This document shows, piece after piece, positions 36,483 to 53,421 of a stretch of 64,000 nucleotides of DNA. Within the stretch, counting starts at the first letter, position 1, and the number at the start of each line of letters is the position of its first letter. This stretch comes from Myxococcales bacterium (GTDB lineage Bacteria; Myxococcota_A; UBA9042; JABWCM01; BTVJ01). The stretch spans positions 102,155 through 166,154 of the forward strand of contig BTVJ01000009.1 in NCBI GenBank assembly GCA_045863395.1. The letters are read 5' to 3'. The notes under the pieces are model-generated. The model searched no databases, was not told the DNA's origin, and saw only the letters and a program-made list of their open reading frames with translations. The translations under genes and the position numbers were made by a program.

Positions 36483-37935
36483 GGCGTGTCTCCGTGAGGG
36501 AGGTGGCTGTGCTCGGCGAAGTGTAGGGCATGGGAGCGCCCGTCGCCAGCGCCCACAGGGGGAAGGGCGACGGTCCGCGGCTTGCCTCGCCAGCCACCAG
36601 GACCAGCCACGCGGTGGGCGCCGCGCCGACACCCACCGTGAGATCGGGCGCGTCGTGGGACGCCACGGGCACTCCCCCGGCGCCCGCGGCACACTGGAGC
36701 CGCGCGACGGTCGCCAGCAGCTCCCGCGCCCCAGTCCCGTCCCCCGCGCGCAGCTTGGCCAGGGCCACTCCGAGGGTGCCCTCCGACCAGATGGAGGGCA
36801 GCAGGTCCCAGTCCACGCCGTGGTCTGCGGACACGCCCGCGTAGGCGCGGTGCCCCACGAGCACACCCCTGCGCAACCCGAAGCGCCGGTCGAGACGGTC
36901 CAGGACACCCGGGACCGCCTCGGCACGCCCCCGCGCCAGCAGCATGAGCGCCGTCCAGCTCCCGGCCGCGTCCAGCGCCTCGTCCAGGACCAGGCCATCC
37001 TCACGAGCGGCCGCCGCGAAGCGTCCTTCCTCGGCCAGCCACAGGCGCTGCTCGACGGCGTCTCCGAGCCAGGATGCCGCCTGACGCAGCTCTCCGTCCC
37101 CGGTGAGCGCAGAGAGCAGGTCCAGGAAGAACCACGCGTCCACCTGGTGCTCGGTGACCGCGGCATCCAGGACGAAGTCCGGGTGGAAGGTCTCCTGGTT
37201 CCGGTCCCAGCGCCCACTGCCCCCCAGCACCAGGCCGTCCCGGGGATCCCCCGGAGCGTCCACGCGCTGCCGCAGGAGCCAGGCCGCAGCCCGCAGCGCC
37301 GCCGCCCGAAAGGTGTGCTCCCCCGTGACCCGCTCGTACATGGCGAAGGCGTACCCGACCCAGGCGACGGTCCCAGCCCTCACGTAGCGGCGGTTGTAGA
37401 AGGTGTCCCCGATGGTGTTGAAGGAGAAGCCGATGGCCCCATCGTCGGCCTGGAGCGACTCCAGGGTGCGCAGGACCCCCGCCGCACGGCCCGGCTCACC
37501 CCGCTCCAAGAGCACGATGGCGACCAGCGCGTCGTCGTAAGCGAAAGAGCGCCCGACGGGCACGAACCACGGGTCGATGCGGTCGTCGCCGGTGGGCTCG
37601 GGGAAGGACAGCACCGCGAGGCGCTCCCCGGCCACCGGACGCAGGGCCTCGGTGTCGTCTCCGTCACGCTCGTAGGTGGCCTCGACCTCGTAGGGCACCA
37701 GCGTCAGCCAGCGGGCCGCCCGCTCCGCAGCGCCAGCCAGGTCCCCCGGCTCGAGGCCCACGTCGGCACACGGCGACAGCGGCCCGATGCGAATCTCGCG
37801 GGGTGTGGGGGCGCAGGCCATCGAGCCGAGGATCATGGCGAGGGCCAAGCCACCGACCGCACGCCAGCGCCGGGGTGCCACGCAGCGACGATGGGGCGGA
37901 CGAGGCGCCGGAGCGTCAGTTGCGCTCCATGCCAC
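36436..37935 (-). CDS. Exported putative (alpha/alpha)-barrel glycosidase-like protein
   Basis: Hydrophobic segment ending MAC; SFAYDDALVAI, VTEHQVDAW and IWSEGT motifs; last gene of the GT2 cluster; start uncertain. Confidence 0.55.
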   Translation of the reverse strand: MAWSATDAPAPRPPHRRCVAPRRWRAVGGLALAMILGSMACAPTPREIRIGPLSPCADVGLEPGDLAGAAERAARWLTLVPYEVEATYERDGDDTEALRPVAGERLAVLSFPEPTGDDRIDPWFVPVGRSFAYDDALVAIVLLERGEPGRAAGVLRTLESLQADDGAIGFSFNTIGDTFYNRRYVRAGTVAWVGYAFAMYERVTGEHTFRAAALRAAAWLLRQRVDAPGDPRDGLVLGGSGRWDRNQETFHPDFVLDAAVTEHQVDAWFFLDLLSALTGDGELRQAASWLGDAVEQRLWLAEEGRFAAAAREDGLVLDEALDAAGSWTALMLLARGRAEAVPGVLDRLDRRFGLRRGVLVGHRAYAGVSADHGVDWDLLPSIWSEGTLGVALAKLRAGDGTGARELLATVARLQCAAGAGGVPVASHDAPDLTVGVGAAPTAWLVLVAGEASRGPSPFPLWALATGAPMPYTSPSTATSLTETRHDSTRPTRTAPRGLR

Positions 37936-39103
37936 CGAGGACGTTCTCCATGAGCGGCAGGTAGTACTCCCAGAAGAACCACTCGTTGGTGGCGCTCTGG
38001 CGGTAGCGGGCGAAGTAGCGCTTGTAGGACGGATACCACGCGACTCCGTAGGGCTCGTCCTCGATGACCGTGTCGCCGAAGTCGCCGGCGAAGTACCAGG
38101 CCTGGTAGTCCCCCTTCCAGCTCGTGATGGCCGGGAAACGCGACGGGATGCCCCACTCGTCGAGCTTCTTCTGCCCCGCGGGCCGCACGTCGATCACGAA
38201 CTCCGAGTGGACCGTCGTGCCCTTCCCGGGCCTCACGATGTCGAACCAGTAGTTGTAGGGGACCGCGTCGGACACTCCGCGAAGCACCGGGTCGTTGTTG
38301 TCCACGTTGTAGATCTTGCACAGCTCGTCGCCGATGTCCTTGCCCACCTGGAGCACGACCAGGTTCTCCTTCGTGTCGAAGAAGATGAAGCCGGGGCCGC
38401 TGAAGTGCCACGAGGTGGCCCCGTGGGTCTTCTTCCACAGCTCGTAGACCCACCAGGGCAGGTCGAGCGGGTCCGACAGGTCCTCGACGAAGCGGCCAAT
38501 CCAGTGGCTCCAGTCCACGTGGAGCACCTTCTCCAGGCGCTGGCGCGGGCTGGTCTCCGTCGGCAGCGCGAAGGAGTTGAACTCCGCGATGATGTGCCCG
38601 CCACGCCCCACGTACCGCTCAATGGCACCCATCTCATCGTCCGTGAGACCACCGTAGACAGGAGGGTTGCGCACGCGGTGCTCCTCCTCCGTGTCGATGT
38701 GCTTCAGGTCCAGCTCGTAGGCCCCATACGTGTCTGCCAGATAGAGCACGTTGGTCCCGGCAAGCTCCCCGTCGTCGACCGAACGCCACGTGCTCCACCA
38801 GCGCGCCTCCGCCTCAGGCACCCCCTTGAGCTGCGCCATGACGTAGCGGAGCCCAGGGTAGTACCCGACGTGGTCCGTCGACAGCGCCCATGCGTCGTGC
38901 CCCTCCGGCGCCGGGTAGCGCAGATGATTGAGCACCCAGAACACGGAGCCGTGCTCCTTGTAGCTCACGAAGGGCACGGTCTTGGTGACCACCGTGATGC
39001 GCAGGTCTTTGGAGGGCCCCATGATCCAGGCGATGTAGGGCGACATGATGATCAGGCCGATCACCACCAGGAAGACGATGAGGAAGACCAGCCGCCGGAT
39101 CAT
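37916..39103 (-). CDS. Membrane-anchored hypothetical protein associated with the GT2
   Basis: N-terminal TM; KTVP..YKEH.S.FWVLNH, YLADTYG, YFAGDF; ATGA overlap with the GT2 stop. Confidence 0.7.
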   Translation of the reverse strand: MIRRLVFLIVFLVVIGLIIMSPYIAWIMGPSKDLRITVVTKTVPFVSYKEHGSVFWVLNHLRYPAPEGHDAWALSTDHVGYYPGLRYVMAQLKGVPEAEARWWSTWRSVDDGELAGTNVLYLADTYGAYELDLKHIDTEEEHRVRNPPVYGGLTDDEMGAIERYVGRGGHIIAEFNSFALPTETSPRQRLEKVLHVDWSHWIGRFVEDLSDPLDLPWWVYELWKKTHGATSWHFSGPGFIFFDTKENLVVLQVGKDIGDELCKIYNVDNNDPVLRGVSDAVPYNYWFDIVRPGKGTTVHSEFVIDVRPAGQKKLDEWGIPSRFPAITSWKGDYQAWYFAGDFGDTVIEDEPYGVAWYPSYKRYFARYRQSATNEWFFWEYYLPLMENVLGGMERN

Positions 39104-40518
39104 GCCGCCCTCCCCATGGCGCCGCGGAAGCCTCGCCGATCCATGCGGCCCCAGCCCTTGGCGCCGAAGAAGAACTTCACGATACCCTTGAGCCGCCAGA
39201 GCAAGGTGAGCTGGCGATACCCGAAGTTCTCCAGGACACCGAAGAGCGACAGCCAGAGCAAGCTGCTGTTCGAGCGGTAGAGCGCGAAGGAGATCTCCTC
39301 CAGCAGAACGGTCGCGATGGACAGGAACACGCCATAGAGGAGCGCCACGAGGAAGAACATGAAGAGGAACGGCAGGTCTACGATGCCGCCGGCGAAGCTG
39401 ATGATCACCATCGTGTATCCGAACAGCTCGATGAGCGGCCCGAGCATCTCGAACAGGATGTAGAACGGAAACGCCAGCAACCCGACCACGCCGTAGCGGG
39501 GGTTCAGGGTCAGCCCGCGGTGGGTTGCCAGGCTCTCCATGAGGCCGCGCTGCCAGCGGTCCCGCTGGCGGGACAGGGCGCCCAGGGACTCGGGCACCTC
39601 GGTGAAGCAGATGGGGTCGGGCACGAACACGATGCGGTATGGGATCTTGCGCTTCCGGTGGTAGCGGTGGAGCCGGATGACGAGCTCCATGTCTTCACCC
39701 ACCGTGTCCGTGTCGTAGCCTCCGATGGCCACGACCGAGTCTTTTCGGAACAACCCGAAGGCGCCGCTGATGATCAGGTTGCCGCCAAGCAGGTTCCAGC
39801 CGATGCGCCCGAACAGGAAGGCCCGCAGGTACTCGATGGTCTGGAACAGGGGCAGGAGGCGGTTGCCGAGCCCGATCTTGGTCACGACCCCGTCGTCCAC
39901 CTGGCAGCCGTTGGCCGTGCGGACCGTGCCGCCGGCGGCGATTGTACGGCGGGGGTCCTCCATGAAGGGCACGACCACCTTCAGCAGCGCGTCGCGGTTG
40001 ATGATGGTGTCCGCGTCGATGGAGCAGAAGAGCGGGTAGCGCGCCAGGTTGATTCCCGCGTTGAGGGCGTCCGACTTGCCCCCCTGCTCCTTGTCCACGA
40101 CGGTCAGGCGCGGAATGGCCGCGGAGCGATAGATTCCGCGCACGTCCTGGGTCTCGAGCTGCCGCTGGTAGACGGTCTGCACCAGCTCCAACTGGAAGGC
40201 GCGGGTCAGCTCCGCGAGGGTAGAGTCCGTGGACCCGTCGTTGACGACGATGACCTCGAACTCGCTGTACTTGAGGTTCAGGAGCGAGCGGACGCTGTCG
40301 ACGATGTTCGCCTCCTCGTTGTGCGCCGGCGCCACGATGCTGATGGGCAGCGCGAGGGGTGACTGGAGCAGAGAGTCCAGGTCCCAAGCGTCGGAGCGGC
40401 GCTTGTGGCGCACGATGTCGATGAAGGAGAAGACCAGCAGGACCGTGTAGCTCGTGTTCATCGCGATGAAGTACACGAGCACCAACAGGTTGAGCGCGAA
40501 GATGATATCGGAGAACAC
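39100..40518 (-). CDS. Processive family 2 glycosyltransferase (IcaA/PgaC-like)
   Basis: VNDGS, GGKSDALN, SIDAD, GEDME and QRDRW (QxxRW) motifs plus TM helices. Confidence 0.92.
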   Translation of the reverse strand: MFSDIIFALNLLVLVYFIAMNTSYTVLLVFSFIDIVRHKRRSDAWDLDSLLQSPLALPISIVAPAHNEEANIVDSVRSLLNLKYSEFEVIVVNDGSTDSTLAELTRAFQLELVQTVYQRQLETQDVRGIYRSAAIPRLTVVDKEQGGKSDALNAGINLARYPLFCSIDADTIINRDALLKVVVPFMEDPRRTIAAGGTVRTANGCQVDDGVVTKIGLGNRLLPLFQTIEYLRAFLFGRIGWNLLGGNLIISGAFGLFRKDSVVAIGGYDTDTVGEDMELVIRLHRYHRKRKIPYRIVFVPDPICFTEVPESLGALSRQRDRWQRGLMESLATHRGLTLNPRYGVVGLLAFPFYILFEMLGPLIELFGYTMVIISFAGGIVDLPFLFMFFLVALLYGVFLSIATVLLEEISFALYRSNSSLLWLSLFGVLENFGYRQLTLLWRLKGIVKFFFGAKGWGRMDRRGFRGAMGRAA

Positions 40519-40522
40519 GCGG

Positions 40523-41650
40523 CTACCCCCTCTCGTGCGCGATGGTCGTGGTTGCCGACGACGGGGTGGCCCCGTTGCGCATCACGTAGGTCGCGATGTC
40601 ACGAGCAAACGGGTCCGGTGACGTCCGGCTGACCTCGGTGAGGATGGACCTGCCGCGCTCCCCAAGACTCACCAACCCCTGCGCTGCGTTGAGCCGCACC
40701 CACCAGCTCTGGTCGCCCAGGGCCCAGCGGAGCGCCCGGAAGACCTGCTCGTCCGAGCCGAGCCGAGCCACCGCCTTGACGGCCTGGGCCTTGACCTCCC
40801 ACGCCTCGTCGTTGAGCAGGCGCAGGATGTCGGGCACCGTGTCCACCGCTCCCACCTCGGACAGGGTCTTGACGGCGCGGGCGCGCAGCTCCTTGTCTTC
40901 GGAGGCCAGCAGCGGCCGGACCACGTCGGCGCAGCCCATGTCGCGGGCGATGCGCAGGGCGTCGAGGGCCGTGGCGCGGACGGCGGGCCGCGGGTCGTCG
41001 GCGACCAGGCCGCGCACATAGGCGAGGCCCTCGGGGCCGACCTTCCGCGCGACCTCCGCGAAGAGCAGCGCCGCCCAGCGGCTCGGGTGCCGCACCATCT
41101 CGGCGAGCGCCTCCAGGCCCCGCACATCGCCGACGCAGCCGAGCGCCTTGGCCGCCTCGATGCCGACCAGCTCGTGCTTGTCGCGCAGCGTGCGAAGAAA
41201 GACCGGCCGGAATGCTTCGTTCTCCAGGCGCCCCAGCGCGCGGAGCGCGTTGGCCCGTCGCCACCACGCCCAACTATAGGTGCCGCGCACGTCGGCCTTG
41301 TCGAAGCCGAGCTGGATGTAGAGCTCCACCAGCCGCTCCCGGGCCCGCCCCGACGTCACCTCGAAGTGCTTGAGCAGGAGCCCCCGCAGCTCGGACTTGG
41401 GCAGCTTGCGGAGCGCGACGTTCATCCACGCCTCGTCGAGCTGGCCCTCCAGGTACTCCAACAGGCGCGGCTCGATGCGACGCCGCACCCGCGCCCGCCG
41501 GGTGTCCAGGGAGTTGCGCACGACGCGGAACAGCAGCACCGCGTTGAGCGTCGTCAGCACGAGGATCGTCTGGATGAGGACGATCTTCAGCACCAGGTCG
41601 TAGATGGGGTCCCGTGAGAGGACCCGGATTCCTTCGAAGATCCAGTCCAT
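40523..41650 (-). CDS. HEAT-repeat protein with N-terminal TM
   Basis: WWRRANALRALG, D..WEVKAQA.KA and D.SWWVRLNAAQGL repeats. Confidence 0.85.
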   Translation of the reverse strand: MDWIFEGIRVLSRDPIYDLVLKIVLIQTILVLTTLNAVLLFRVVRNSLDTRRARVRRRIEPRLLEYLEGQLDEAWMNVALRKLPKSELRGLLLKHFEVTSGRARERLVELYIQLGFDKADVRGTYSWAWWRRANALRALGRLENEAFRPVFLRTLRDKHELVGIEAAKALGCVGDVRGLEALAEMVRHPSRWAALLFAEVARKVGPEGLAYVRGLVADDPRPAVRATALDALRIARDMGCADVVRPLLASEDKELRARAVKTLSEVGAVDTVPDILRLLNDEAWEVKAQAVKAVARLGSDEQVFRALRWALGDQSWWVRLNAAQGLVSLGERGRSILTEVSRTSPDPFARDIATYVMRNGATPSSATTTIAHERG

Positions 41651-41659
41651 GGTCCCCTC

Positions 41660-43189
41660 CTAGAAGCGCACTGCATAGTGCAGGGTCAGCGAGTGCTGGA
41701 AGATGCCCACCACAGGCTGGTTGTCCCGATCCGGGTCGGTGGTCCAGTAGGCCCAGGTCAGGTCGATGCCGTGCTGCTCGTGGAAGTCCCACCCGATGCC
41801 GGCCAGGAACGACATGGAGTCCTGGATGATGGCGTCGATGTTGCCGGCGACCACCGCGCTCTCCTCGTAGAACACCTCCACGGCGCTCCCGTAGGAGGCC
41901 GCCCCGAACAGGCGCAGCACGTCGATGACCTGCCAGTCGATGCGCAGGCGGCCGAGGTGACCCGGATCGAGCGAGTCCTCGGAGTAGAGGTTGGCGCGAT
42001 AGCCGAGGTCGATGCTCACGGGGCCCGCGTGAAAGAGCAGGCCCGGGCCGACCTGGTGGATCCACAGGTCGCCGGTCTGATCGGCGTTGGCGTTGCGGTA
42101 GTCGCTGATGGCGTAGGTCGCGTAGATCTCGAGCCACTCTGCCACCCGGAAGTAGGGCTGTACGTGGGCGCGGAAGGCCGGCCGGAACGCGGGCTCGATG
42201 GTGAAGCCGAGATCGATGTCGAAGCGGAACCAGTCCGCGGGCTTGAAGGCCCCGAAGATCGAGAGGAAGGGATCCACCTCGGTCGACGGCAGGTCCTCGC
42301 GGATCATGATGTCCGCCGCAACACCCAACATCGCCGCCGGGCTGAAGGCGTAGCTCAGGGCGACGTTGACCCCGTGCCAGTCGGGGCGCTCCAGGTTCAG
42401 GAACAAGGTGTACGCGAGGTCCACGCGCCAGGGGTGCGCCGAGGCCTCGGGTTCGGGACCGCCCTCGATCATGCGCACGGTCTCCAGATCACCCGCATCG
42501 CGCAGGCCCGGAGCGTAGCGGGCCGCCCCCTCGTGGTCGCCCATGGCCATCAGGTTGCGAGCCGCGGCCCGCAGCGCGTGGGGGCTCTGGGGAGCCCGCA
42601 GGAGCGCCAGCTCGTACTGGACCCGCGCCTCGTCGTAGCGTCCCTGCCAGTACAGCATGTCGCCGAGCACGAGGTAGGGCTCCTCGGTGTCTACGCCCGC
42701 GGCCTTGGCCTGCTCGACCAGGGCCGCGGCCTTCTGGTAGTGGCCGCCCCAGGCGTGGACCCGCGCCTCCAGCAGCAGCGCGTCCTTGTTGCCCGGGTCC
42801 TCCTCCCGCAGGCGGTCGAGCCACCGGGCGGCGCGCTCGTGGTCCCCCGCGAAGGCAAGGGCGCGCGCCGCACGGAAGTGCACCGCGGGCGACGGCCCCC
42901 ACACGTCGGCGATCAGCTCATAGAGTTGGGCAGCGTCGCCCCACCTCTGCTGCTGCTCACGCTGCGCGGCCATGCTCTCGATGGCCGCCAGAGAGCGGGC
43001 GTCCCGGCGGGCGAGCAGGTCAAGGATCTGGCGGGACTCCTCCGTCGTGCCGGCCGGCATCGCCGGCTTCGCTGGCGCACCAGCCTCGACGGGACCGGAT
43101 GGACTCCGCGGCGCCTGCGCCAACGCCGCCCCTTGGGTGACGAAGAGCAGGACGGCGGCGGCGAACACGTGGCGGGGTAGCACGTTCAT
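41660..43189 (-). CDS. TPR protein with C-terminal outer-membrane beta-barrel (YaiO-like)
   Basis: Signal peptide, TPR helices, amphipathic strands, terminal YAVRF; ATGA overlap with the upstream gene. Confidence 0.78.
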   Translation of the reverse strand: MNVLPRHVFAAAVLLFVTQGAALAQAPRSPSGPVEAGAPAKPAMPAGTTEESRQILDLLARRDARSLAAIESMAAQREQQQRWGDAAQLYELIADVWGPSPAVHFRAARALAFAGDHERAARWLDRLREEDPGNKDALLLEARVHAWGGHYQKAAALVEQAKAAGVDTEEPYLVLGDMLYWQGRYDEARVQYELALLRAPQSPHALRAAARNLMAMGDHEGAARYAPGLRDAGDLETVRMIEGGPEPEASAHPWRVDLAYTLFLNLERPDWHGVNVALSYAFSPAAMLGVAADIMIREDLPSTEVDPFLSIFGAFKPADWFRFDIDLGFTIEPAFRPAFRAHVQPYFRVAEWLEIYATYAISDYRNANADQTGDLWIHQVGPGLLFHAGPVSIDLGYRANLYSEDSLDPGHLGRLRIDWQVIDVLRLFGAASYGSAVEVFYEESAVVAGNIDAIIQDSMSFLAGIGWDFHEQHGIDLTWAYWTTDPDRDNQPVVGIFQHSLTLHYAVRF

Positions 43190-43581
43190 TCGCAACGCTC
43201 GCACCTCAACAGGTTTCTGACCCGGGCACGCAAGATGTCGATGCTGTAGGGCTTGCCGACGAAGTCCATTGCCCCGGAGTCCAGGGCCCGGATGACGTCT
43301 TCCTCCCTGCTCTGCTGCGAAAGCATCAGCACTCGCAGCTTGGGACCGATGGCCTCCCGGATGTGACGCAGGACCTGGAACCCGTCCGCGAACCGAAGGT
43401 GCACGTCGAGGATCACCAAGTCCGGCAGCACGCCGGTCTCGACCCCCAGGTCGAGGAAGTCCATGGCCTGGCGACCGTCGGTCGCCACGCGCACGTTGTA
43501 GCCGTCCCTCCCGAGGAAGTGCTGCAGCAGGAGCACGCTCTGCCTGTCGTCATCGGCGACGAGTATCTCTTCCCCGGCCAT
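43186..43581 (-). CDS. Single-domain response regulator
   Basis: ILVADDD, LVILD (phospho-acceptor Asp), MLS, FVGKPY. Confidence 0.9.
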   Translation of the reverse strand: MAGEEILVADDDRQSVLLLQHFLGRDGYNVRVATDGRQAMDFLDLGVETGVLPDLVILDVHLRFADGFQVLRHIREAIGPKLRVLMLSQQSREEDVIRALDSGAMDFVGKPYSIDILRARVRNLLRCERCE

Positions 43582-43810: not shown

Positions 43811-45859
43811 TCACTCCTCCAGGGCGGCCAGGCTCCCTCGAACGAGCCGCACTCGCCGGTTCCCGGCCACCGTCGTCCAGGTCTCCGTGGTGCCCGCGGC
43901 GTCGGGCCACCGCACGGTGACGTCCGCCTCGCAGGCATCGCCGAGCCCGAAGTGCAGGACCAGGTCGTTCTGCATGCCGACGTGGCCGTAGCCGCCCCCG
44001 ACCTCCTGGGTCTGGGTGCGGCCGCCGGCGGTCACCTGGACGCGCGCCCCGATGGCGGCGTGGTTTGCCCCAGCGCCGCCCTCGACGCGAACCTGGAGGT
44101 GGTTGCCGGCGTGCCCGAGGACGTTGCGGAAGTAGTGGACCTCCTGGGTCTCGTAGCAGGTCGGGTCGCCGTCGCAGCGGGCCGTCCCGTGGCCGACGAC
44201 CACGTCCAGGTCCCCGTCCCGGTCGAAGTCGGCCACCGCGAGGCCTTGGGAGCGCGCGTGGTCGATGCCAAGGCCTGGGGGGACCTCGACGAAGCGGCCG
44301 TCGTCCCCCTGGTGGAACAGGAAGCCGCGCGTGCCAGGGTAGTCGGAGGAGCCGACATACAGGTCCTTGCGCCCGTCGTTGTCGAAGTCGAAGACGGCCC
44401 CGACCATGTCCCCAGCATTCCACGCGAGGTCGTCCCAGGAGCGCGCGAGCCCCGTCGCGTCGTTGCCCGGGCGCGTGAAGGTCCCCGTGCCGTCATTCTG
44501 GAGCAGCTCCATGGGGTCCGAGCTGTCGCCCACGTCCCAGTGGACGATCTCGAAGTTGACCAGGTCCAGGTCGCCGTCGTCGTCCACGTCCGCGCAGGCC
44601 GTGCTGAAGGTGTTGCCGCCCAGTCGGAACGGGTGGCGGTCGAGGTCGTGGTTCCAGCGGAGCGCGCCGACCGTGGTGCAGGGGAAGTACGCGGGGGGCG
44701 CCGGCACGCCGCCGCAGTCCTCGGCGTCCGGGACGAGCTGGCAGTAGCACTGAGCGTTGAAGTTGGTGTGCCAGTCCACGCGCTGATCCATGCCGTAGCC
44801 GCTCTCGACGGAACGATCCGTGTACGCGGGGACCCCGCCGGCGAATCCCCCCTTCCAGAGCCCATTCCACAGGCGCCCGTAGGAGGCCGTGAGCAGGTCG
44901 GGCCATCCATCGCCGTCCACGTCGCAGACCGTCGTTCCCCAGGTGTTGCGGGTCGCCTTGCCGCTGTCGAGGACCTCCACGCTGCTCCAGCCCGGCGTCA
45001 CGAGGCCCGCCAGCTTCGTGATGTCCTTGAAGGACCCCGCCCCATCGCCCACGTAGAGGCGGTCCAGGTCCGGCTGGGTCACACCATTCCCATAGCCCAC
45101 GAACAGGTCGAGCAGGCCGTCGCGGTCAGCATCCACGAACGAGGCGCCACCCGCCGCGTAGCGCTTGTCCGGGTGCCGCAGGTCGCCTCCGGGGGCGAGG
45201 GTAAAGGTGCCGTCACCGGCGTTGAGCAGGATCTCGTTGCGGTCGCCGTTGTCGGGCGTGGAGGGGTCAGGGTTCACCGAGACGCCCGAAAACGCGTCCA
45301 GATCGCCGTCATTGTCCACGTCGCCGAAGACCACGATCTGGGAGGTGCGGCCCGTGCCGCCTTGGGGCAGGGCGAGGAAGCCGCTCTCCTCCGTGGCATC
45401 GACGAAGCGGCGGCCCCCACTCTCGGCGGGGCGGTTCATCAGGACCCACGCGAGGCGCGGGGCGCCCGGGTCGTGCGTGCTCAGCCCCACGTTGCGGACG
45501 ACGAGGTCCGGGTAGCCGTCGCCGTCCAGATCCGCCGCGCTCAGGCGGATGCCGGTCACGCCCACGAGGCCCACCTCGGCCGTCGCGTCCTCGAAGGCCG
45601 GCTGGCCGCTCCACACGGTCGGTGGGCGGCACGCGGGGGCATCGGGTGCGGCGTCGGGTGCGGCGTCGGGAGCTGGCGCCGACCCGTCCCCGGCCAGGTC
45701 GTCGCCGCGCTCCACGTTTGCGTCCGCGTCGCTCGGCGGTCCGGCGGAAACGTCGCTCATCGCGTCGTCCGAGTCGGCGCCTCCGTCGCCCGCGTGACCG
45801 GGCGCGCTGGACCCGCTGTCACAGGCGACGGCGAGCGCGAGCAGCCAGAACCTCTTCAT
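43811..45859 (-). CDS. CRTAC1-like lipoprotein (FG-GAP/VCBS repeats plus ASPIC/UnbV)
   Basis: Lipobox AVAC; repeated D.D.DG..D motifs; C-terminal AIGARV..LHFGLG..VRWP; GGAGG RBS. Confidence 0.88.
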   Translation of the reverse strand: MKRFWLLALAVACDSGSSAPGHAGDGGADSDDAMSDVSAGPPSDADANVERGDDLAGDGSAPAPDAAPDAAPDAPACRPPTVWSGQPAFEDATAEVGLVGVTGIRLSAADLDGDGYPDLVVRNVGLSTHDPGAPRLAWVLMNRPAESGGRRFVDATEESGFLALPQGGTGRTSQIVVFGDVDNDGDLDAFSGVSVNPDPSTPDNGDRNEILLNAGDGTFTLAPGGDLRHPDKRYAAGGASFVDADRDGLLDLFVGYGNGVTQPDLDRLYVGDGAGSFKDITKLAGLVTPGWSSVEVLDSGKATRNTWGTTVCDVDGDGWPDLLTASYGRLWNGLWKGGFAGGVPAYTDRSVESGYGMDQRVDWHTNFNAQCYCQLVPDAEDCGGVPAPPAYFPCTTVGALRWNHDLDRHPFRLGGNTFSTACADVDDDGDLDLVNFEIVHWDVGDSSDPMELLQNDGTGTFTRPGNDATGLARSWDDLAWNAGDMVGAVFDFDNDGRKDLYVGSSDYPGTRGFLFHQGDDGRFVEVPPGLGIDHARSQGLAVADFDRDGDLDVVVGHGTARCDGDPTCYETQEVHYFRNVLGHAGNHLQVRVEGGAGANHAAIGARVQVTAGGRTQTQEVGGGYGHVGMQNDLVLHFGLGDACEADVTVRWPDAAGTTETWTTVAGNRRVRLVRGSLAALEE

Positions 45860-45882
45860 CGTGCCTCCACTCCAGCGGGGGC

Positions 45883-46782
45883 TCAGCCCGGCGCGATGCC
45901 ATAGATGGGGACCCGGCGCCCGCCGAGCTGCTCCTTGAAGCGGCGGCCGGCAGCATCGTCGGGCGGCAGCATCCCCAGGTCCACGGTGCGGGCACCGGCG
46001 CTCAGCGCGTGGCGGACCGCCTCCCAGGTGACGAGCATGTGCGCCGCACCAAAGTACTGCGGAGGCAGCGCCGCCGTGTCCACGAGCGTGGCCCAGGCAC
46101 CCACGCGCACGACGAGGGCCGCGGCCACGGGGGCGCCGCCGGCGACGGCCACGGCGACGGAGGCGTCCTCCCCGAAGGCGTCGCGCAGGCGGTCCAGGTC
46201 GTGGCGCCCGAAGGGGGGGCCGCCCATGCGGGCGCTGCGCGTGACCTGGAGGCCCAGGTAGCGCATCAGCGTGGCGCCGTCCCGGCCGACGGTCACCTTG
46301 ACCCCGTCCCGCTCCGCCTTGCGGATGGCAGCCCGGGCGTCCTTGCTCACCAGCTCCCACGCGGCGTCGGGGGAGGCAGCCTCCAGGACGTGCGCCTCGT
46401 GCGTGCGGAAGCGCTCGAGACCGTGCGAGGGCAGCACGGACAGGCGCGACGGGTCCACGGGGGCCACGTTGACGCGGAAGGTGCCGCCGGCCAGGGATCG
46501 CAGCGCCTTGAGGAGCTCGTCCAGGTTCAATGTCGGGGCGCCCCGGCGCAGGAGCACGCCCACCATGCGGTCTGGAAGGGCCTCCAGCCGGCCATCCAGG
46601 TCGAGACCGACGACGTAGCCCACGATGGCGGCATCGGGGCGCGCGATGCGAAGGGTGATGGGGGTCGAGCCCCGGTAACGCTCACGGGTCAGGTCGCGCC
46701 AGGCCAGCACGAAGGCAGGCGGCGGTGCGGGCTCCGCCCCGGCGAGCACCTCACCGGGGTCGACGGGCTCGAGGGTCAGCAT
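45883..46782 (-). CDS. GNAT/FemAB-like (Acetyltransf_6-type) protein
   Basis: SKDARAAIRKAERDGV, HMLVTWEAVRHA, VDLG..RRFKEQLGG. Confidence 0.72.
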   Translation of the reverse strand: MLTLEPVDPGEVLAGAEPAPPPAFVLAWRDLTRERYRGSTPITLRIARPDAAIVGYVVGLDLDGRLEALPDRMVGVLLRRGAPTLNLDELLKALRSLAGGTFRVNVAPVDPSRLSVLPSHGLERFRTHEAHVLEAASPDAAWELVSKDARAAIRKAERDGVKVTVGRDGATLMRYLGLQVTRSARMGGPPFGRHDLDRLRDAFGEDASVAVAVAGGAPVAAALVVRVGAWATLVDTAALPPQYFGAAHMLVTWEAVRHALSAGARTVDLGMLPPDDAAGRRFKEQLGGRRVPIYGIAPG

Positions 46783-46802
46783 GGGACCTCGCGAAGAAGG
46801 CT

Positions 46803-48737
46803 CTAGTCGAGCGGTCGCAGGGAACCCGCGCGGGCATCGTCGAGCACCTCCCGGGGCACCCCGGGGCACCGCCCGCGCGCGGAGCACCCCGCGCAGGCCG
46901 CAGCGTAGCCCCGGCTGGTGCCTCCCGTCCAGGATGCGATCTGCTCGACGTAGGGCACCACGAGGAAGGGGGGGCTGGACATGGGCAGCGGGGCCGGAAG
47001 CCCAGGGAGCACGCACGGGGGGACGCCGTGGACCTCCAGGCGGAAGGGGAGCGCGGCGATGTCGTCGAGGAGCGGAAGCAGCGCCTCGCGCAGGTCGGCG
47101 AAGGACGGCGCCACGGAGGTCCATGAGCCGACCCCCACCTCGGAGAGGGGCTCCAGGTACGCGGCGTCGGGCGCCAGGGAACGCACGAGGTCGAGCCACA
47201 CGGGCAACACGGGGAGCAGCGAAGAGGTCAATGGCGCGTGGACGACCAGGCGCACGCCGCGAGCCCGAAACGCCTCGATTCCAGCCAGAGTCCGCCGGAA
47301 GCTGCCGCGGACGCCCGTGACCGCCTGGTGGATCGCCGGGGTCGGGCCGTGGATCGGCACGTCCACGGCGGTCAGCCCCGCGTCGACGAGGCGACCCGCG
47401 GCATCGCCCGGAATGGCTGCGTGCGTCTGGAGCTGGAGCGTCCGGTAGCCCAGATCCCGCCCGTAAGACAGGGCGGACGCGATCCACGGCACCGACGTCG
47501 GCTCGGCACCGCCGATGGAGACGGCGGCGCAGCGAGTACGCAGGGCGCGCATGGACGCGCGGACGCCGTGCAGCGTTGACCAACGGTGCTCACCAGCCGG
47601 AGCGACGCAGAAGGTGCAGGCCAGGTCGCAGGCTGGGGCGAGCAGCGTCAACAGCGCGGCGTCTGGGTAGCGCGGCACCATGTCGATGCGCGCCTCCTCC
47701 GGGGGGCGCCACCCGGCAGGGACGGCCGGGTCCCGAGGCACGATGAGCGGCACGCCGCGCACGCTCGGCACCGCGCCGGGGCGGGGGGCGTCGTGGGGCA
47801 CGGGGCGCAGGCCCTCCCACCCGAGCAGGCGCGCGGTCTCGACGAACACGCCGGGGCAGGAGGCGTAGAGCGCGCACCCGGAGCACGGGGGCGGCTTCAC
47901 CTTGTTGAAGTCGTCGATGTCGACCAGGGCGTCGTCCCAGACCTCGCTCATGACCAGCAGGCGGTTGGCCATGAGGTCGTCGTCCAGGTGGCGGTGCTCG
48001 CCCATGAGGCACAGGGGGAAGTTCTCGATGGCGAAGCGGGGCCCAGGGCCGTCGCCGATGCGCTCGCGGGCGTAGTCCAGGGCGTCCACGACGCTGGCGG
48101 CGGCGTCCGCCAGGGGCGGGACCACGGCCTCCTCGTGGCGCAGCGCGGCCCCTTTGGGCTCGCAGCACGAGAACTTGAGCATCACGTCCGGGTAGGGGAG
48201 CAGCAGGTCGACGAGGTCGCGGAGGGAGCGCCGGTTCTGCTCCACGACCACGCAGTTGACCGTCAGGTCGAGGCCACGCCCGGTCAGGTTCACGAGGCCC
48301 TGGAAGCTCTGCTGGAAGCTCCGGTCCCCGGTGCACTTGTTGTGGACCCGCTCCGTGCCGTGGATGGACAGGTGGACGTAGCGGAGGTTGTGGCGCAGGA
48401 GCTTCTCGACCAGCGTCCCGTAGGACATCATGCGCCCGTTCGTGATGAACCCGAGGAGCATGCCGCGCCGCGCCACGTGGCGGGTCAGCTCCAGCAGGTC
48501 CGGCCGCATGGTCGCCTCCCCGCCCGAGAAGACCACCATGTCGAAGCCGGCGGCGCGGGCCCGGTCCACCTTGGCCAGCAGGCTCGCCGTGTCCGCGTCG
48601 CCCGAGTGGCGGTAGTCGTCCGTGTGGCAGAAGACGCAGTGGTCGTTGCAGGAGTAGCCCACCTTGATCAGCGCGCGGCGCTGGCCGCGGCGGGCGCGGC
48701 GCTCCACGGGCTCGTCGTGGGTGCGGGCTTCGAGCAA
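46803..48737 (-). CDS. Tandem double radical SAM protein
   Basis: CNDHCVFC/SGGEAT plus CSGCALYASCPG; second CDLACTFC/GGAEPT plus CAGCSARGRCPG; GAGGAGG RBS. Confidence 0.88.
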   Translation of the reverse strand: MLEARTHDEPVERRARRGQRRALIKVGYSCNDHCVFCHTDDYRHSGDADTASLLAKVDRARAAGFDMVVFSGGEATMRPDLLELTRHVARRGMLLGFITNGRMMSYGTLVEKLLRHNLRYVHLSIHGTERVHNKCTGDRSFQQSFQGLVNLTGRGLDLTVNCVVVEQNRRSLRDLVDLLLPYPDVMLKFSCCEPKGAALRHEEAVVPPLADAAASVVDALDYARERIGDGPGPRFAIENFPLCLMGEHRHLDDDLMANRLLVMSEVWDDALVDIDDFNKVKPPPCSGCALYASCPGVFVETARLLGWEGLRPVPHDAPRPGAVPSVRGVPLIVPRDPAVPAGWRPPEEARIDMVPRYPDAALLTLLAPACDLACTFCVAPAGEHRWSTLHGVRASMRALRTRCAAVSIGGAEPTSVPWIASALSYGRDLGYRTLQLQTHAAIPGDAAGRLVDAGLTAVDVPIHGPTPAIHQAVTGVRGSFRRTLAGIEAFRARGVRLVVHAPLTSSLLPVLPVWLDLVRSLAPDAAYLEPLSEVGVGSWTSVAPSFADLREALLPLLDDIAALPFRLEVHGVPPCVLPGLPAPLPMSSPPFLVVPYVEQIASWTGGTSRGYAAACAGCSARGRCPGVPREVLDDARAGSLRPLD

Positions 48738-48898
48738 CGGGTGCCTCCTCGCGCAGGGTACGGGCGCCGGGGTCGCGCCTCAAGGCGACCGTGGCCTCTC
48801 GGGGGCGCCTTGGAAAGCAGACCAACATTGTCCGCGTTTTGCAAGGCGGCGTCGCCTCGGGCCTTGCGCTCACGGGTCCGACCCGTACAGTGCAGACC

Positions 48899-49921
48899 AT
48901 GGGAACGCAGGCAGCACGGGAGGGCGTGGTCGAGCGCATCGAGCAGCGCGACATGCGGGTCCACATCAACGTGGGGCCGCTCTGCAACAACAACTGCATC
49001 TTCTGCATGGAGGAGGACCGGGACATGCGCGCCGTGGTCAACGGCGCCCTGACCCCGGACAAGGTCCAGAGCCTGCTTGTCGCCAACCGCGGAGCCGAGG
49101 AGGTGTGCTTCACGTCCGGGGAGCCGACGTTGGTGGCAGAGCTGCCCCGCTATGCCAGGTGGGCGCGCCAGCTCGGGTATCCGCGCGTCAGCGTCATGAC
49201 CAACGGGCGGCGCCTGGCCCACATGCCGGTGCTGGAGCAGCTCCTGCGGGCGGGGATGAACTTCTTCTACGTGTCCATCCACGGCCACGAGGCGCGGCTT
49301 CACACGGGCTTGGTACGCGAGCCGGCGGCCTTCGACCAGACGGTCGCGGGAATCCGCAACATCGCGTCCGTGAAGAACCGCGGCGTGCAGCTCCACACGA
49401 GCACCGTGATCAACCGGCGCAACCTGCCCTATCTGGGTGAGATCTACGCGTTTCTCCGGGGTCTCGGGGTGGATCAGGTGGTGTTCAACGTCATGCAGGC
49501 CAACGGGCGGGCCAACACCTACTTCGATCAGCTCTTCCCCCGCTACACGGAGATCGCCGCCGCCTTCCGCACCTTCCTGGCGGCAGCCGACGAGCCGCAG
49601 CCCATGGCCTTCCTGGTGGACATCCCGCTCTGCACCACCGAGGGCATCCCCGACTTCAACCGGGGCTACGTGGAGTCCTACACCCACTTCGAGGTGGCGG
49701 GCTTCGAGGACGTCTCGCCGGAGCGCCTCGCGGTGACGCGCAGGGCCCGCCTCACGGAGGACGAGCGCTTCCTCGCCGTGACCCGGGAGGACCTGGACGC
49801 CGTCGAGCGCGACAAGCGCCCCGAGTGCGCGACCTGCCGCTACGACCGCGCCTGCGAGGGCGTCTGGCGCAACTACCTGAGGCGCAACGGCTGGGACGAG
49901 CTGGTGCCCGTTCAGGGCTGA
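48899..49921 (+). CDS. Radical SAM protein (HxsC-like, C-terminal CxxCxxxxxCxG)
   Basis: CNNNCIFC, TSGEPT, TNGR, DIPLC, CATCRYDRACEG. Confidence 0.88.
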   Translation: MGTQAAREGVVERIEQRDMRVHINVGPLCNNNCIFCMEEDRDMRAVVNGALTPDKVQSLLVANRGAEEVCFTSGEPTLVAELPRYARWARQLGYPRVSVMTNGRRLAHMPVLEQLLRAGMNFFYVSIHGHEARLHTGLVREPAAFDQTVAGIRNIASVKNRGVQLHTSTVINRRNLPYLGEIYAFLRGLGVDQVVFNVMQANGRANTYFDQLFPRYTEIAAAFRTFLAAADEPQPMAFLVDIPLCTTEGIPDFNRGYVESYTHFEVAGFEDVSPERLAVTRRARLTEDERFLAVTREDLDAVERDKRPECATCRYDRACEGVWRNYLRRNGWDELVPVQG

Positions 49922-49952
49922 GGGGCCGGGCTGCGCTGGGGACTCGGAGCGG

Positions 49953-51584
49953 TCAGAGCGGCCGGAGCGGCCCATACCCGTGTGCCCTCACCCAGTTGAT
50001 GTGGACCCCCGCGCAGGCGCCGTCGATGCGGCAGCCGGCGCAGCGGCGGCTCTTCGTGTGGAAGCCGTCGCGGATGAAGCGGTCGGTGAACCCCAGGGGG
50101 TCGAGGCGCCCGTCGGGCGTCAACGTGTGCAGGTCGAGGACGCGGGGCGACGGGCGCGGGGCGCGGCCTGAGAGGCACTGCGGGACCCCCTCGACGGGGA
50201 CGGGGTGGGGGAAGGCCGCGAAGAAGGCGGGCAGGTCTGCGTCGTGGGAGCGGGCTTCGGAGGCGCGCTCCCAGGTGCGGAGCGCCAGAGAGAGCCGCGG
50301 CGTGACGGAGCCCCAGCCTTGGGCGACCAGCCAAGCGGCCACGGGGCGCACCAGCCACGCCGTCACCTCGAAGTCGGCGTCGAGGGCCAGGAGCGCGGCA
50401 AGATCCTCGGGGGTTCCCGCAAAGGCGCGGGTGAGTCGCTTGGGGCCGAGCGGGGCGGGATCGAAGCCCTCCCACGAGTCCAGATCGAGCCACAGCTCCT
50501 CCCCGGGGAGAGACGCGGCGAGCGCGACGGCGTCGGCAGGGGTGGCCGCGCGGATCCAGGCCGCATGGACGGCACCGAGCAGCGGGGCCGCGGCGGGCAG
50601 GTGGGGCTCCTCGCGGGCGTCGGCGCGGACCATGGCGTAGTCCGGCGCGTCCGTCCGGGCGATGGCGTCCCCCACCCCGTCGCACAGGGGCTGGAGGTAG
50701 CACTTTTCGCAGCGGTCGGGCTTGCGGCAGAGCAGCGGCCAGCGGCGCCGGATCCACCACTCGTACTCGTCCAGGCGCCCCCGCACCTCGTCCAGCAGCT
50801 TGTGGGGGTCCTGGATCAGGTGCTCCCAGCCCTCGAGGAAGGGTGGCGGGAAGCGGTTGAACCAGATGTGGAGATCCGGCCGCAGGCTCAGCTCCAGGGC
50901 GTAGCGCAGCGGCTCCCAGGCCTCGTCGATGTCGTAGAAGAGCGTGTCCTTGCCCCAGCGGTAGGCGTCGCCGAAGGGGATGATGTGCAGCAGGTCGATC
51001 TCGCGCACCCCGAGGGCGACGAGCCCGTCGAGCAGCTCCCGCAGGTGCGGCACGTTGGCCCGGTTGAGGCACACGTCCACGTTGACCACCACCCGCCCGT
51101 CCGCCAGCGCGTTGCGGATGCCCGCGATGATCTGCACGTAGGCGCCCGGCACGCCGACCAGCGCGTCGTGCACCTTGGCGTTGTGCCCATGCACTGAGAA
51201 GGTGATCTCCTGGAGGCCCGCGTTGACGGCGCGCCGCAGGAACTCTGGGTACGCGAACATACGCCCGTTGGTCACGGTCTGGACGCGGCGGTAGCCGAGC
51301 CGGTGGCCCAGCGCGACGAAGTCCACGAACTCGGGGTGGATGGTGGGCTCGCCCCCGGACAGGATCAGCCGGGTGGCGCCGCCTTCACGACCTTGCGCGA
51401 TGAGCGCCCGCACCCCCTGCGGGTCGACGTAGGTGCCATCGTGGACCGCGGAGTCCAGGCAGAACACGCACTTGTTGTTGCACAGGTTGGTCAGCCGCAC
51501 CCACTGGCGCCGCTCGTGGGCCGCCTCCTCGTGGGTCGCCGCCTTGCCGAGCGCGGCCTGGAGATCATCGAAGCCCGTGGTCAC
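49953..51584 (-). CDS. Radical SAM protein with two auxiliary Cys clusters
   Basis: CNNKCVFC, SGGEPT, TNGR; CEKCYLQPLCDG and CAGCRIDGACAG; start moved to GTG 51584 (GGAGG RBS). Confidence 0.88.
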   Translation of the reverse strand: MTTGFDDLQAALGKAATHEEAAHERRQWVRLTNLCNNKCVFCLDSAVHDGTYVDPQGVRALIAQGREGGATRLILSGGEPTIHPEFVDFVALGHRLGYRRVQTVTNGRMFAYPEFLRRAVNAGLQEITFSVHGHNAKVHDALVGVPGAYVQIIAGIRNALADGRVVVNVDVCLNRANVPHLRELLDGLVALGVREIDLLHIIPFGDAYRWGKDTLFYDIDEAWEPLRYALELSLRPDLHIWFNRFPPPFLEGWEHLIQDPHKLLDEVRGRLDEYEWWIRRRWPLLCRKPDRCEKCYLQPLCDGVGDAIARTDAPDYAMVRADAREEPHLPAAAPLLGAVHAAWIRAATPADAVALAASLPGEELWLDLDSWEGFDPAPLGPKRLTRAFAGTPEDLAALLALDADFEVTAWLVRPVAAWLVAQGWGSVTPRLSLALRTWERASEARSHDADLPAFFAAFPHPVPVEGVPQCLSGRAPRPSPRVLDLHTLTPDGRLDPLGFTDRFIRDGFHTKSRRCAGCRIDGACAGVHINWVRAHGYGPLRPL

Positions 51585-51607
51585 CTGCTGCCTCCGGCGG
51601 TAGCGGA

Positions 51608-51679
51608 GGGGGGTCAAGTATACTCATATCTCATATTCTGGCCTGCCAGAATATGAGATATGAGTATACTTGACCCCCC
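51608..51679. repeat. Perfect 72-bp AT-rich inverted repeat (REP/MITE-like)
   Basis: GGGGGGTCAAGTATACTCATATCTCATATTCTGGC-CT-exact reverse complement; 35-bp arms. Confidence 0.92.
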
Positions 51680-51681
51680 AC

Positions 51682-53421
51682 CTACCGCAGCATCAACGCC
51701 TTGAACTCGTGGGGCGCCAGCCCCATGCAGCGCTCGTCCACCGGGTGGTAGCGCAGCCCCGAGACGTGGTCCAGGTTCAGGCGGTCACCGGCGAGGCGCG
51801 CCAGGGCCTCGCGGGTCCAGGCCCGCTTGTCGAGGGTGAGGCCCACGCTGGCGAAGAGCGCGCGCAGCGACGCGAACCACGTCCTCGTGCTGGCCAGGGT
51901 GATCGCCTCGCGGTCGAGGCCGATGAGGTCCTGGACGTACTCCACCTTGGCCTCGAAGCCGATGCGATCCGCCACGTGGAGCATGTGCCCGAAGTGGATG
52001 CTGAACTCCAGGTGGTCCAGGTGGTTCGAGGCTACCGGATACCGCACCAGATCGCCGTACTCGGTGATGAACGCCGCCCCTCCGGGGCGCAGCACCCGCC
52101 GCACGTGGCTCAGGAAGCGCAGCGCGCCCACGTTGAGGAAGAACTCGCTCGGCGCGTCGTCGAGCGGCAGATCCCAGCGGCGGATCAGGTCGCCCGCGTC
52201 GCCCAGGCGCTCCAGCAGGGCGTCGTCCCAGCGCGTCCAGGGGGCGTCCGGGGGGTTCGCGTCGTCCACCTCGATGCCCAACAGCTCGCGGGTCAGCTTC
52301 ACCGTCGTGAAGTCGCCGATGACCTCGTTGCACAACACCAGGTCCACGGAGGCGGGCCGCAAGGGCAGCGTCTCCGCGTTGCCGTGGACCCAGTGGACCC
52401 GGTCCGCCAGGCCGTCGCGGGCGAGGCGCTCCGCCTGAGCCTCCCGCAGCGCCGGTGACAGATCGAGGATCGTATAGGCCAGGCCGTCGAAGACATCCGG
52501 GCGCAAGCGGCGCAGCGTCCCGAGCACGCCGGCCGCCAGGTCACCGACGCCGGCGCCCACCTCCAGGACCTTGCGCGTGCCGGGGCCAATCATGTCCCGC
52601 TCCAGCAGCGCCTCTGTGACCCGCTCGGCGTAGGTGCCACCGTGGAGCAGCGGCGACGGCTCGCGGAGCAGGTGGCTCAGCGTCGTCTCCACGTCCTCGA
52701 ACTGGGAGACCGGGTCCTCGACGTCCGCCGCGTAGTACCCGTGGGGCGGGGCGATGGGCACGGCCAGCTCGGCGAACGGGTCGTGGGGCGCGGGACCGCG
52801 CGGGTCCCAGGGGGCGAACGGCATGCTCGATCGCAGGTAGCTCGGCCACTGGTGCTCGGGCCCGAAGCGCGACAGCGGGGCCTTGGAGAGGCGCAGGTAC
52901 TGCCGCTCGTGGTGGACCCAGCAGGCGACGGTGCGCTCGACGTCCTCCCGCGCAGGCGCCGGATCCAGCCGGCTGACCAGCTCCTCCAGCGTCGTCTCCC
53001 CGTCCATGCTCGCCCACAGCCGCGCCGCCCAGGCGGGCACCGACTCGGAGCTGGAGCGCCCCGCGCGGTCCGTTCGCCAGAACGTGAGGTGGTCCGCCGA
53101 AGGCTGGTGCGCGACCACCCACCGGGCCTTGACCGGGACCATGGACCAGAGCTGGTCCTCCTCGCGCGCCCCCGGGGCGACGAGGCACGAGAAGAGCTGG
53201 AGCACGGGCAGGAACTCGTCGAGCTGGCCCGCCTCGAAGCGGCCGGCGAAGGCGGCGTCCGCGTCGGCGCGGGAGCGGGGCGTGCCGCGGTGGTGCTCGA
53301 TGAGCTCGGCGACGTCCGGGCTCATGGCCAGCAGGTACCCGAACAGGTCGTGGTAGGCGTGCACCTGCCCGTGCTGCTGGAACCAGCTCACATGGGGGGA
53401 CGCGATCAGGCGGTCGGTCAC
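51682..53421 (-). CDS. Class I SAM-dependent methyltransferase with N-terminal PqqD/RRE-like region
   Basis: VLEVGAGVG, ILDLS, CNEVIGDF, LRPGG; N-region contains ARLWASMDGETTLEELVSRL. Confidence 0.8.
   Translation of the reverse strand: MTDRLIASPHVSWFQQHGQVHAYHDLFGYLLAMSPDVAELIEHHRGTPRSRADADAAFAGRFEAGQLDEFLPVLQLFSCLVAPGAREEDQLWSMVPVKARWVVAHQPSADHLTFWRTDRAGRSSSESVPAWAARLWASMDGETTLEELVSRLDPAPAREDVERTVACWVHHERQYLRLSKAPLSRFGPEHQWPSYLRSSMPFAPWDPRGPAPHDPFAELAVPIAPPHGYYAADVEDPVSQFEDVETTLSHLLREPSPLLHGGTYAERVTEALLERDMIGPGTRKVLEVGAGVGDLAAGVLGTLRRLRPDVFDGLAYTILDLSPALREAQAERLARDGLADRVHWVHGNAETLPLRPASVDLVLCNEVIGDFTTVKLTRELLGIEVDDANPPDAPWTRWDDALLERLGDAGDLIRRWDLPLDDAPSEFFLNVGALRFLSHVRRVLRPGGAAFITEYGDLVRYPVASNHLDHLEFSIHFGHMLHVADRIGFEAKVEYVQDLIGLDREAITLASTRTWFASLRALFASVGLTLDKRAWTREALARLAGDRLNLDHVSGLRYHPVDERCMGLAPHEFKALMLR

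Follow-up and report, generated by a model that had tools for sequence, protein, structure and literature searches.

The 64,000-nucleotide stretch analysed here (hereafter the window) corresponds to positions 102,155 to 166,154 of contig BTVJ01000009.1 of a Myxococcales bacterium (assembly GCA_045863395.1), and it carries six adjacent genes, three of which code for radical S-adenosylmethionine (radical-SAM) enzymes related to the HxsC-type maturases of His-Xaa-Ser (Hxs) systems (Table 1). An earlier note, made from the sequence alone, had read the six genes as a single orphan cluster for the modification of a peptide or a protein. The HxsC4 gene is the only one on the plus strand and the remaining five lie on the minus strand, the mixed orientation described in that note; the methyltransferase, GNAT/FemAB-like and CRTAC1-like genes that it had placed around the radical-SAM genes are likewise recognized by Pfam families, the FemAB-like match of the GNAT protein remaining below cut-off. 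The spacers of the six-gene stretch measure 20-161 bp, with values of 20-23 bp for the double radical-SAM, GNAT and lipoprotein genes, all on one strand. As had been noted, these short spacers contain no precursor open reading frame, and in the six frames of the whole window the sequence HxSHxS has a single, isolated occurrence at position 24359.

Table 1. Genes and other features of the six-gene stretch, in window coordinates.
Feature	Position	Strand	Remarks
FG-GAP/ASPIC-UnbV (CRTAC1-like) lipoprotein, 682 aa	43811..45859	-	Pfam FG-GAP_3 and UnbV_ASPIC
FemX-like double-GNAT protein, 299 aa	45883..46782	-	Pfam Acetyltransf_6 (PF13480)
Double radical-SAM protein, 634-644 aa	46803..48737	-	Two CxxxCxxC motifs; Pfam Radical_SAM; NCBIfam below cut-off
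HxsC4 radical-SAM enzyme, 340 aa	48899..49921	+	NF038332 over cut-off
HxsC-like radical-SAM protein, 543-554 aa	49953..51617	-	One CxxxCxxC motif and two four-Cys auxiliary sites
REP-type palindrome, 78 bp	51605..51682	.	Between the methyltransferase and 554-aa radical-SAM genes
Methyltransf_28 (COG1565/NDUFAF7-like) methyltransferase, 579 aa	51682..53421	-	PF02636; two predicted N-terminal PqqD-like modules

The radical-SAM enzymes and the type-4 His-Xaa-Ser genes

The four CxxxCxxC motifs reported in the earlier note are present, two in the double protein and one in each of the other two enzymes. A short CxxCx5CxG auxiliary motif had been described after each of them; the motif is real and its cysteines are invariant, but there are five copies across the three genes, the 554-aa protein having two. 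Every auxiliary motif is completed by a fourth cysteine located further upstream, so that the site of HxsC4 consists of C245, C310, C313 and C319. The motif cysteines are conserved in all rows of the orthologue alignments (72-73 of 72-73 for HxsC4, 9 of 9 for the 554-aa type and 12 of 12 for the N-terminal domain of the double protein), and the motifs are therefore not chance occurrences. Pfam recognizes Radical_SAM, and no SPASM or twitch family at E 0.01, in the radical-SAM proteins, and the NCBIfam SPASM models all score far below their cut-offs, in agreement with the claim that a full SPASM domain is lacking.

The enzyme encoded on the plus strand matches the HxsC4 model NF038332 with 536.3 bits (cut-off 500) over positions 3-335 of 335, which bears out the resemblance to HxsC-type maturases and at the same time removes the label of an uncharacterised orphan. 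The canonical HxsC model TIGR03977, which had been suggested for a search, gives a best score of 111.1 bits, below its cut-off of 267.9. On NF038332, the double protein and the 554-aa protein reach 123.3 and 115 bits, respectively; their best NCBIfam matches are HxsC4 and HxsC, far below the cut-offs. Judged by these scores, the two proteins represent paralogous subfamilies beside HxsC4 that have no NCBIfam model of their own. The 554-aa protein lacks a SAM-cluster motif in its C-terminal half, the end of which resembles that of HxsC4, and in a quick tree, whose long outgroup branches restrict its use to this one clade, the protein groups with HxsC4-adjacent proteins of other Myxococcota (SH-aLRT 100), apart from its paralogue on contig C15. 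As for the double protein, its N-terminal domain (N-domain) belongs to a common type-4 Hxs subfamily, and its C-terminal domain (C-domain, approximately 46806-47747) to a rare one that is tied to the GNAT gene.

His-Xaa-Ser systems were reportedly first described by Haft and Basu in 2011. The substrate of the present enzymes had been supposed to be encoded elsewhere or to be a full-size protein, and a scan for His-x-Ser triplets in the six frames of the 186 contigs of the genome returned two matches, a low-complexity fragment and a peptide on contig C12 (C12:8401-8709). This peptide scores 119.4 bits on the HxsA4 model NF038313 (cut-off 55); it is 102 residues long and consists of a leader followed by repeats, ending in 15 His-x-Ser units and a Trp. 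Contig C15 encodes an HxsD protein (58.7 bits, cut-off 50) and an HxsD-like protein (67 bits, cut-off 41), HxsB (TIGR03978) is over cut-off on C121 and C89, and further HxsC-like genes are found on C3, C4, C9, C12, C15 and C23. The cut-off of canonical HxsC is reached by none of 12 matches in the genome. The type-4 parts are thus spread over at least five contigs (C9, C12, C15, C89 and C121), and because HxsC4 lies here while HxsA4, HxsB, HxsD and the HxsD-like protein lie on other contigs, the window holds one fragment of a type-4 His-Xaa-Ser system dispersed over the genome.

The surroundings of these other parts offer some additional observations. In the first 10,616 bp of C12 (L001), two double radical-SAM genes flank HxsA4, and a UbiA-family gene and more radical-SAM genes lie downstream. 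The over-cut-off HxsB of C89 (L008, C89:7760-10713) adjoins a full-length HxsB paralogue devoid of a CxxxCxxC motif. On C15, a small twin-arginine translocation (TAT)-signal protein is encoded downstream of HxsD and HxsD-like (L002:11814-12377); its relatives recur in the Hxs clusters of four other genomes (G004, G012, G019 and G033), and it is a possible exported partner. On C9, about 13 kb before the window (L003:4179-9238), an HxsC-like gene scoring 175 bits on HxsC4 adjoins genes for a MerR-TPR regulator and a chorismate mutase-DAHP synthase, as well as a gene with no NCBIfam match.

The neighbourhoods of HxsC4 were compared in a collection of species genomes, in the best 80 of 236 relatives; these loci are labelled Myxococcota or delta proteobacteria, 50 of them are at least 15 kb long, and two come from genomes that also figure in the class searches, which covered 107 genomes (the present one, G000, and 106 others). 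An HxsA4 peptide is encoded in 26 of the 80 loci, directly upstream and on the same strand in 19, and HxsD in 16. The 554-aa enzyme has an orthologue in 14 loci and the N-domain in 13, with both present in 10; in one class genome (G020), the N-domain orthologue directly follows HxsA4. A neighbourhood of HxsC4, HxsA4, HxsB and HxsD genes is conserved around the enzymes in relatives. Scattering is common too, since 38 of the 80 loci hold no other Hxs part at the cut-offs used. About four fifths of the class genomes have the type-4 system, as HxsA4 is over cut-off in 83 of 107; the family of the 554-aa enzyme (554/583 family) is found in 88 of 107, and HxsC4 over cut-off is rarer (4 of 41 genomes).

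A FemX-like GNAT protein paired with the C-domain

The GNAT protein was at first taken for a bystander on account of its absence from the 80 HxsC4 loci, a reading overturned by its pairing with orthologues of the C-domain. Of the 106 other class genomes, six have such an orthologue, at E 2e-51 or better; one more match, in G014 (E 3e-27), was dropped as it is 56% identical to another paralogue. In five of the six (G001, G002, G019, G030 and G068), the GNAT gene is the next one downstream of the C-domain orthologue, and in the sixth, G065, the contig ends inside the radical-SAM gene itself. A search for the GNAT protein in 301 genomes of the phylum gave four non-self matches, three of them among the C-domain genomes and the fourth in G004, where the gene is part of a radical-SAM cluster of that kind and sits at the end of a contig. 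The GNAT gene belongs with the Hxs genes through one specific radical-SAM domain.

The double-domain fusion of the window is shared by G001, and the N-half lacks a CxxxCxxC motif in G019, G030, G065 and G068. A metagenome scan with the C-domain yielded no relative, and when its alignment was run against 401 genomes of the phylum, with five candidates scored per genome, solely genomes already in the alignment were returned. A fusion of a related, FemX-like GNAT domain with an HxsC-like radical-SAM domain is encoded as well in the clusters of G004, G019 and G030. In G019, this fusion (L144:9175-10956, with counterparts in L146 and L147) is part of a large cluster that includes a 1232-aa ferredoxin/radical-SAM/HAD-like protein and a short-chain reductase (SDR), and in G068 the cluster includes a carbamoyltransferase.

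The structural model of the GNAT protein (pLDDT 94, from 17 sequences) displays a double-GNAT fold, and Foldseek ranks 1-10 are occupied by the aminoacyl-tRNA-dependent synthases Sba18 and Sbb17 and by FemX (E 6e-15 to 2e-12, TM approximately 0.6, 12-18% identity). With the family profile, FemX is matched at E 2e-4 in its region 169-241, by way of a basic helix (residues 147-158) that aligns to FemX 169-181. A C-terminal Phe-Lys is conserved, and 16 of 17 rows retain K283. The review PMC12945691 gives a basic helix for tRNA binding and one Lys in the active site as the marks of the aminoacyl-tRNA transferase fold. On curated models, the protein remains below the FemX/FemAB cut-offs (TIGR03019, 49.8 versus 260.35 bits; NF047883, 19.7 versus 500), and the predicted complex of C-domain and GNAT scored 0.00, which is evidence neither for nor against an interaction. 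The GNAT protein is predicted to be an aminoacyl-tRNA-dependent transferase and a partner of the C-terminal radical-SAM domain. In a literature listing on this pairing, no FemX-type enzyme was linked to a peptide-pathway radical-SAM domain. What is new at this locus is the linkage, across genomes, of the GNAT gene to the double enzyme's second domain, and this two-gene, FemX-like accessory module is its one addition.

The methyltransferase, the lipoprotein and further neighbours

The earlier note had described the methyltransferase as PqqD-like, or similar to a RiPP recognition element (RRE; RiPP, peptide that is made by the ribosome and modified post-translationally). Its catalytic domain matches PF02636 and PDB 4f3n, and its model contains two N-terminal winged-helix modules (pLDDT approximately 90), each made up of three strands and three helices. 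The similarity to PqqD is found in the predicted fold, as residues 88-182 superimpose on a PqqD model with a TM score of 0.74, both structures being predictions, and it is not matched by the profile: PF05402 gives 15.3 bits against a gathering score of 23.4, and matches of any kind at E 1 are seen for 3 of 21 family members. The fold is also close to the PKMT winged-helix family, and when the profiles of the two modules were compared, both mutually and against the HxsB N-terminus, no similarity was detected (probability < 1%).

The genomic distribution of the methyltransferase does not follow that of the Hxs genes. It is present in 50 of the 107 class genomes, namely in 9 of the 12 with no HxsA4 match versus 41 of the 95 with one, and in 14 of the 19 lacking the 554/583 enzyme versus 36 of the 88 that have it. 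None of the 80 HxsC4 loci contains it, and none of 19 loci of its own orthologues has an HxsC-type neighbour within flanks of 1.5 kb, one of them having a PA0069-type radical-SAM gene. It usually adjoins a large lipoprotein-like gene and often also a gene labelled RimO-like from its sequence; no precursor peptide or RiPP cluster is linked to the PqqD-like modules at the orthologue loci. For the FG-GAP lipoprotein, present in 81 of the 107 class genomes, none of 24 orthologue loci with flanks of 1.5 kb shows an Hxs neighbour. Two genomes of a single genus (g28) have its orthologue 6-8 kb away from an Hxs operon and separated from it by unrelated genes, and in G001 the orthologue and the radical-SAM-GNAT pair are on different contigs. 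On the basis of neighbourhood and distribution in other genomes, where their orthologues do not track the Hxs genes, the two proteins were rejected as members of the pathway: the methyltransferase is probably not part of it and the lipoprotein is probably a bystander, so that this part of the proposed six-gene cluster did not hold. The methyltransferase family, conserved in Myxococcota and with predicted PqqD-like modules, is a candidate for a protein- or peptide-directed methyltransferase with a substrate of its own.

The palindrome next to the methyltransferase gene, absent from the earlier description, is of the repetitive extragenic palindromic (REP) type. It was rejected as a locus-specific signal, being one of 42 genome sites, 40 of them intergenic, that together harbor 62 arms of this AT-rich family; five shuffled arms used as a control for the search gave no match. 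A Y1_Tnp (RAYT-type) gene on another contig (L212, C117:9320-10192) adjoins two REP copies and probably encodes the RAYT transposase of the family. Contigs from RNA runs of three studies cover the region, a type of data that cannot show transcription, strand or level; that contigs end at 48793-48820 in three of the runs, near the divergent spacer, is a weak hint at most. Elsewhere, a single run of minus-strand genes at 36436-43581 of the window encodes a response regulator, TPR/barrel-like and HEAT proteins, a GT2 synthase and two proteins with no Pfam match, and looks like an exopolysaccharide synthesis operon.

Interpretation and comparison with known systems

The three radical-SAM genes quite probably constitute a detached piece of the type-4 system that acts in trans on the HxsA4 peptide of C12, with the FemX-like protein adding a tRNA-borne amino acid in a step coupled to the C-domain. 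We infer the chemical steps from the analogy with the HXS system of Escherichia coli: the HxsD-type proteins would present the leader of HxsA4, each radical-SAM domain would generate a radical from SAM and with it remove hydrogen from the His-x-Ser (His-Gly-Ser) units, and cross-links or a one-carbon bridge would form in the peptide as a result. Less firmly, the GNAT protein would aminoacylate the product together with the C-domain, the acceptor being either the processed peptide or some small product released from this peptide. Genome rearrangement would have brought the methyltransferase and lipoprotein genes next to the others. A more specific proposal, that a FemX-type enzyme with a dedicated radical-SAM domain transfers a tRNA-charged amino acid onto the radical-modified His-Gly-Ser peptide or a product cut from it, is tentative and more doubtful. 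If true, it would add tRNA-dependent tailoring to a radical-SAM peptide pathway found in most members of a myxobacterial class and would offer a handle on the product of this pathway. The module formed by the GNAT protein and the C-domain combines predicted aminoacyl-tRNA chemistry with a defined, 102-aa candidate substrate in the same genome.

Several observations weigh against this interpretation. The 38 HxsC4 loci that hold no other Hxs part mean that neighbourhood alone cannot assign each enzyme to the peptide, and the absence of the GNAT gene from all 80 loci makes it accessory. The seven genomes that carry the pair or a part of it are kin, the f4/f15 clusters being one inherited block, and they do not count as independent. 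HxsA4 is over cut-off in G001, G002, G004 and G065, but G019 and G068 carry the pair and gave no HxsA4 match, and the match in G030 is below cut-off and has an internal stop; these three genomes are 90-95% complete, and the HxsA4 repeat may be unassembled. With respect to the GNAT protein, tandem-GNAT acetyltransferases also match its model, at lower rank, the protein lacks the NPNN motif of its family, and the equivalence of K283 with Lys305 of FemX is deduced from position, with no alignment. Finally, a search of the available literature on HxsA4, HxsC4 and His-Gly-Ser repeats returned no paper.

An alternative is that HxsC4 and the 554-aa enzyme serve HxsA4 while the C-domain and the GNAT protein act on a small molecule or a cell-envelope acceptor made by the larger tailoring cluster that surrounds them in relatives, with a carbamoyltransferase, a short-chain reductase and more radical-SAM enzymes. 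The carbamoyltransferase gene of G068 lies directly upstream of the pair, the G019 cluster with the pair holds the reductase and the GNAT-radical-SAM fusion, neither genome has an HxsA4 match, and the closest solved folds, Sba18/Sbb17 and FemX, have non-peptide or cell-wall acceptors. This separation is rather unlikely, however, given that in the present genome and in G001 a typical type-4 N-domain forms one protein with the C-domain, that in G065 its gene is on the HxsA4 contig, approximately 4 kb away, and that four of the genomes concerned have HxsA4 over cut-off. It is quite unlikely that the genes serve phage defence in the manner of E. coli HXS, the matured peptide blocking DNA entry, although they share homology to HxsB, HxsC and HxsD and the same His-x-Ser motif with that system, for which a block of phage DNA entry is described in PMC13128918. 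The 102-aa precursor is far below the HxsA cut-off (TIGR03979, 23.1 versus 121.65 bits) and, by inspection, has no visible signal peptide or peptidoglycan-binding domain. Moreover, the type-4 genes are scattered, as opposed to the four-gene operon of more than 99% of HXS loci, and HxsA4 is nearly class-wide. On these grounds a role in defence is conceivable, with a general role more likely; the question bears on what the product does and leaves the chemistry proposed above unaffected.

The original reading, in which all six genes make up one self-contained pathway whose RRE-bearing methyltransferase recruits the substrate, perhaps the lipoprotein, is largely refuted by the neighbourhood counts and must be regarded as most improbable. 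It draws on the modular N-terminus of the methyltransferase with its PqqD-like predicted fold, on the tight, co-oriented arrangement of the double radical-SAM, GNAT and lipoprotein genes, and on the two g28 genomes. Those points are outweighed by the separate occurrence of methyltransferase and Hxs genes, both at the loci (0 of 80 and 0 of 19) and among the genomes, by the REP element that intervenes between the methyltransferase and radical-SAM genes, and by the 24 lipoprotein loci devoid of an Hxs neighbour. The detached-fragment interpretation sorts the neighbours differently: the three radical-SAM enzymes and the GNAT protein belong to the system, and the methyltransferase and the lipoprotein probably do not.

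The locus adds no new system, as the core is already catalogued in NCBIfam as a type-4 set comprising HxsC4 (NF038332), HxsA4 (NF038313), HxsD-like (NF038315), HxsB (TIGR03978) and HxsD (TIGR03976). The enzyme encoded at 48899-49921 is the HxsC4 of this set, and the other named parts are all in the genome. Unlike the catalogued set, the parts are here distributed over at least five contigs, and the flanking radical-SAM enzymes and the GNAT protein represent subfamilies with no model of their own. The set is known as annotation, and the literature search found no paper that names it; for HxsC and HxsA it found only the HXS paper (PMC13128918) and passing mentions, for example in PMC9062424.

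According to the HXS paper (Li et al., Nat Commun 2026, PMC13128918), the E. coli HXS antiphage system is composed of HxsD, HxsB, HxsC and HxsA; HxsB and HxsC are both needed and, with an HxsC-HxsD complex, mature HxsA, which undergoes a change of +8 Da (+C/-4H) in one His-x-Ser repeat. The present system resembles HXS in its His-x-Ser repeat substrate, its HxsB and HxsD proteins and its HxsC-related radical-SAM enzymes. In contrast with HXS, none of its HxsC matches attains the HxsC cut-off, its HxsC-like domains number about twelve where HXS has a single one, and no HxsD-HxsB-HxsC-HxsA operon is found. Its precursor is a short peptide made up of a leader and repeats, whereas HxsA of HXS is an exported peptidoglycan-binding protein. 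Among its neighbours, the methyltransferase is like COG1565/NDUFAF7 in its catalytic domain and like PqqD/RRE proteins in its predicted N-terminal fold, from which it differs by a sub-threshold PF05402 score and the lack of a linked precursor. The GNAT protein resembles FemX and the natural-product aminoacyl-tRNA transferases (Sba18/Sbb17, PDB 9wqy/9wqw; DhpH-C and VlmA, described in PMC12945691) in its predicted double-GNAT fold, and its basic helix, aligned to FemX 169-241, and its conserved C-terminal Phe-Lys may be further points of likeness; it differs from them by a sequence identity of 16-18%, by scores far below the FemX and FemAB cut-offs and by its genetic tie to a radical-SAM domain of a peptide pathway.

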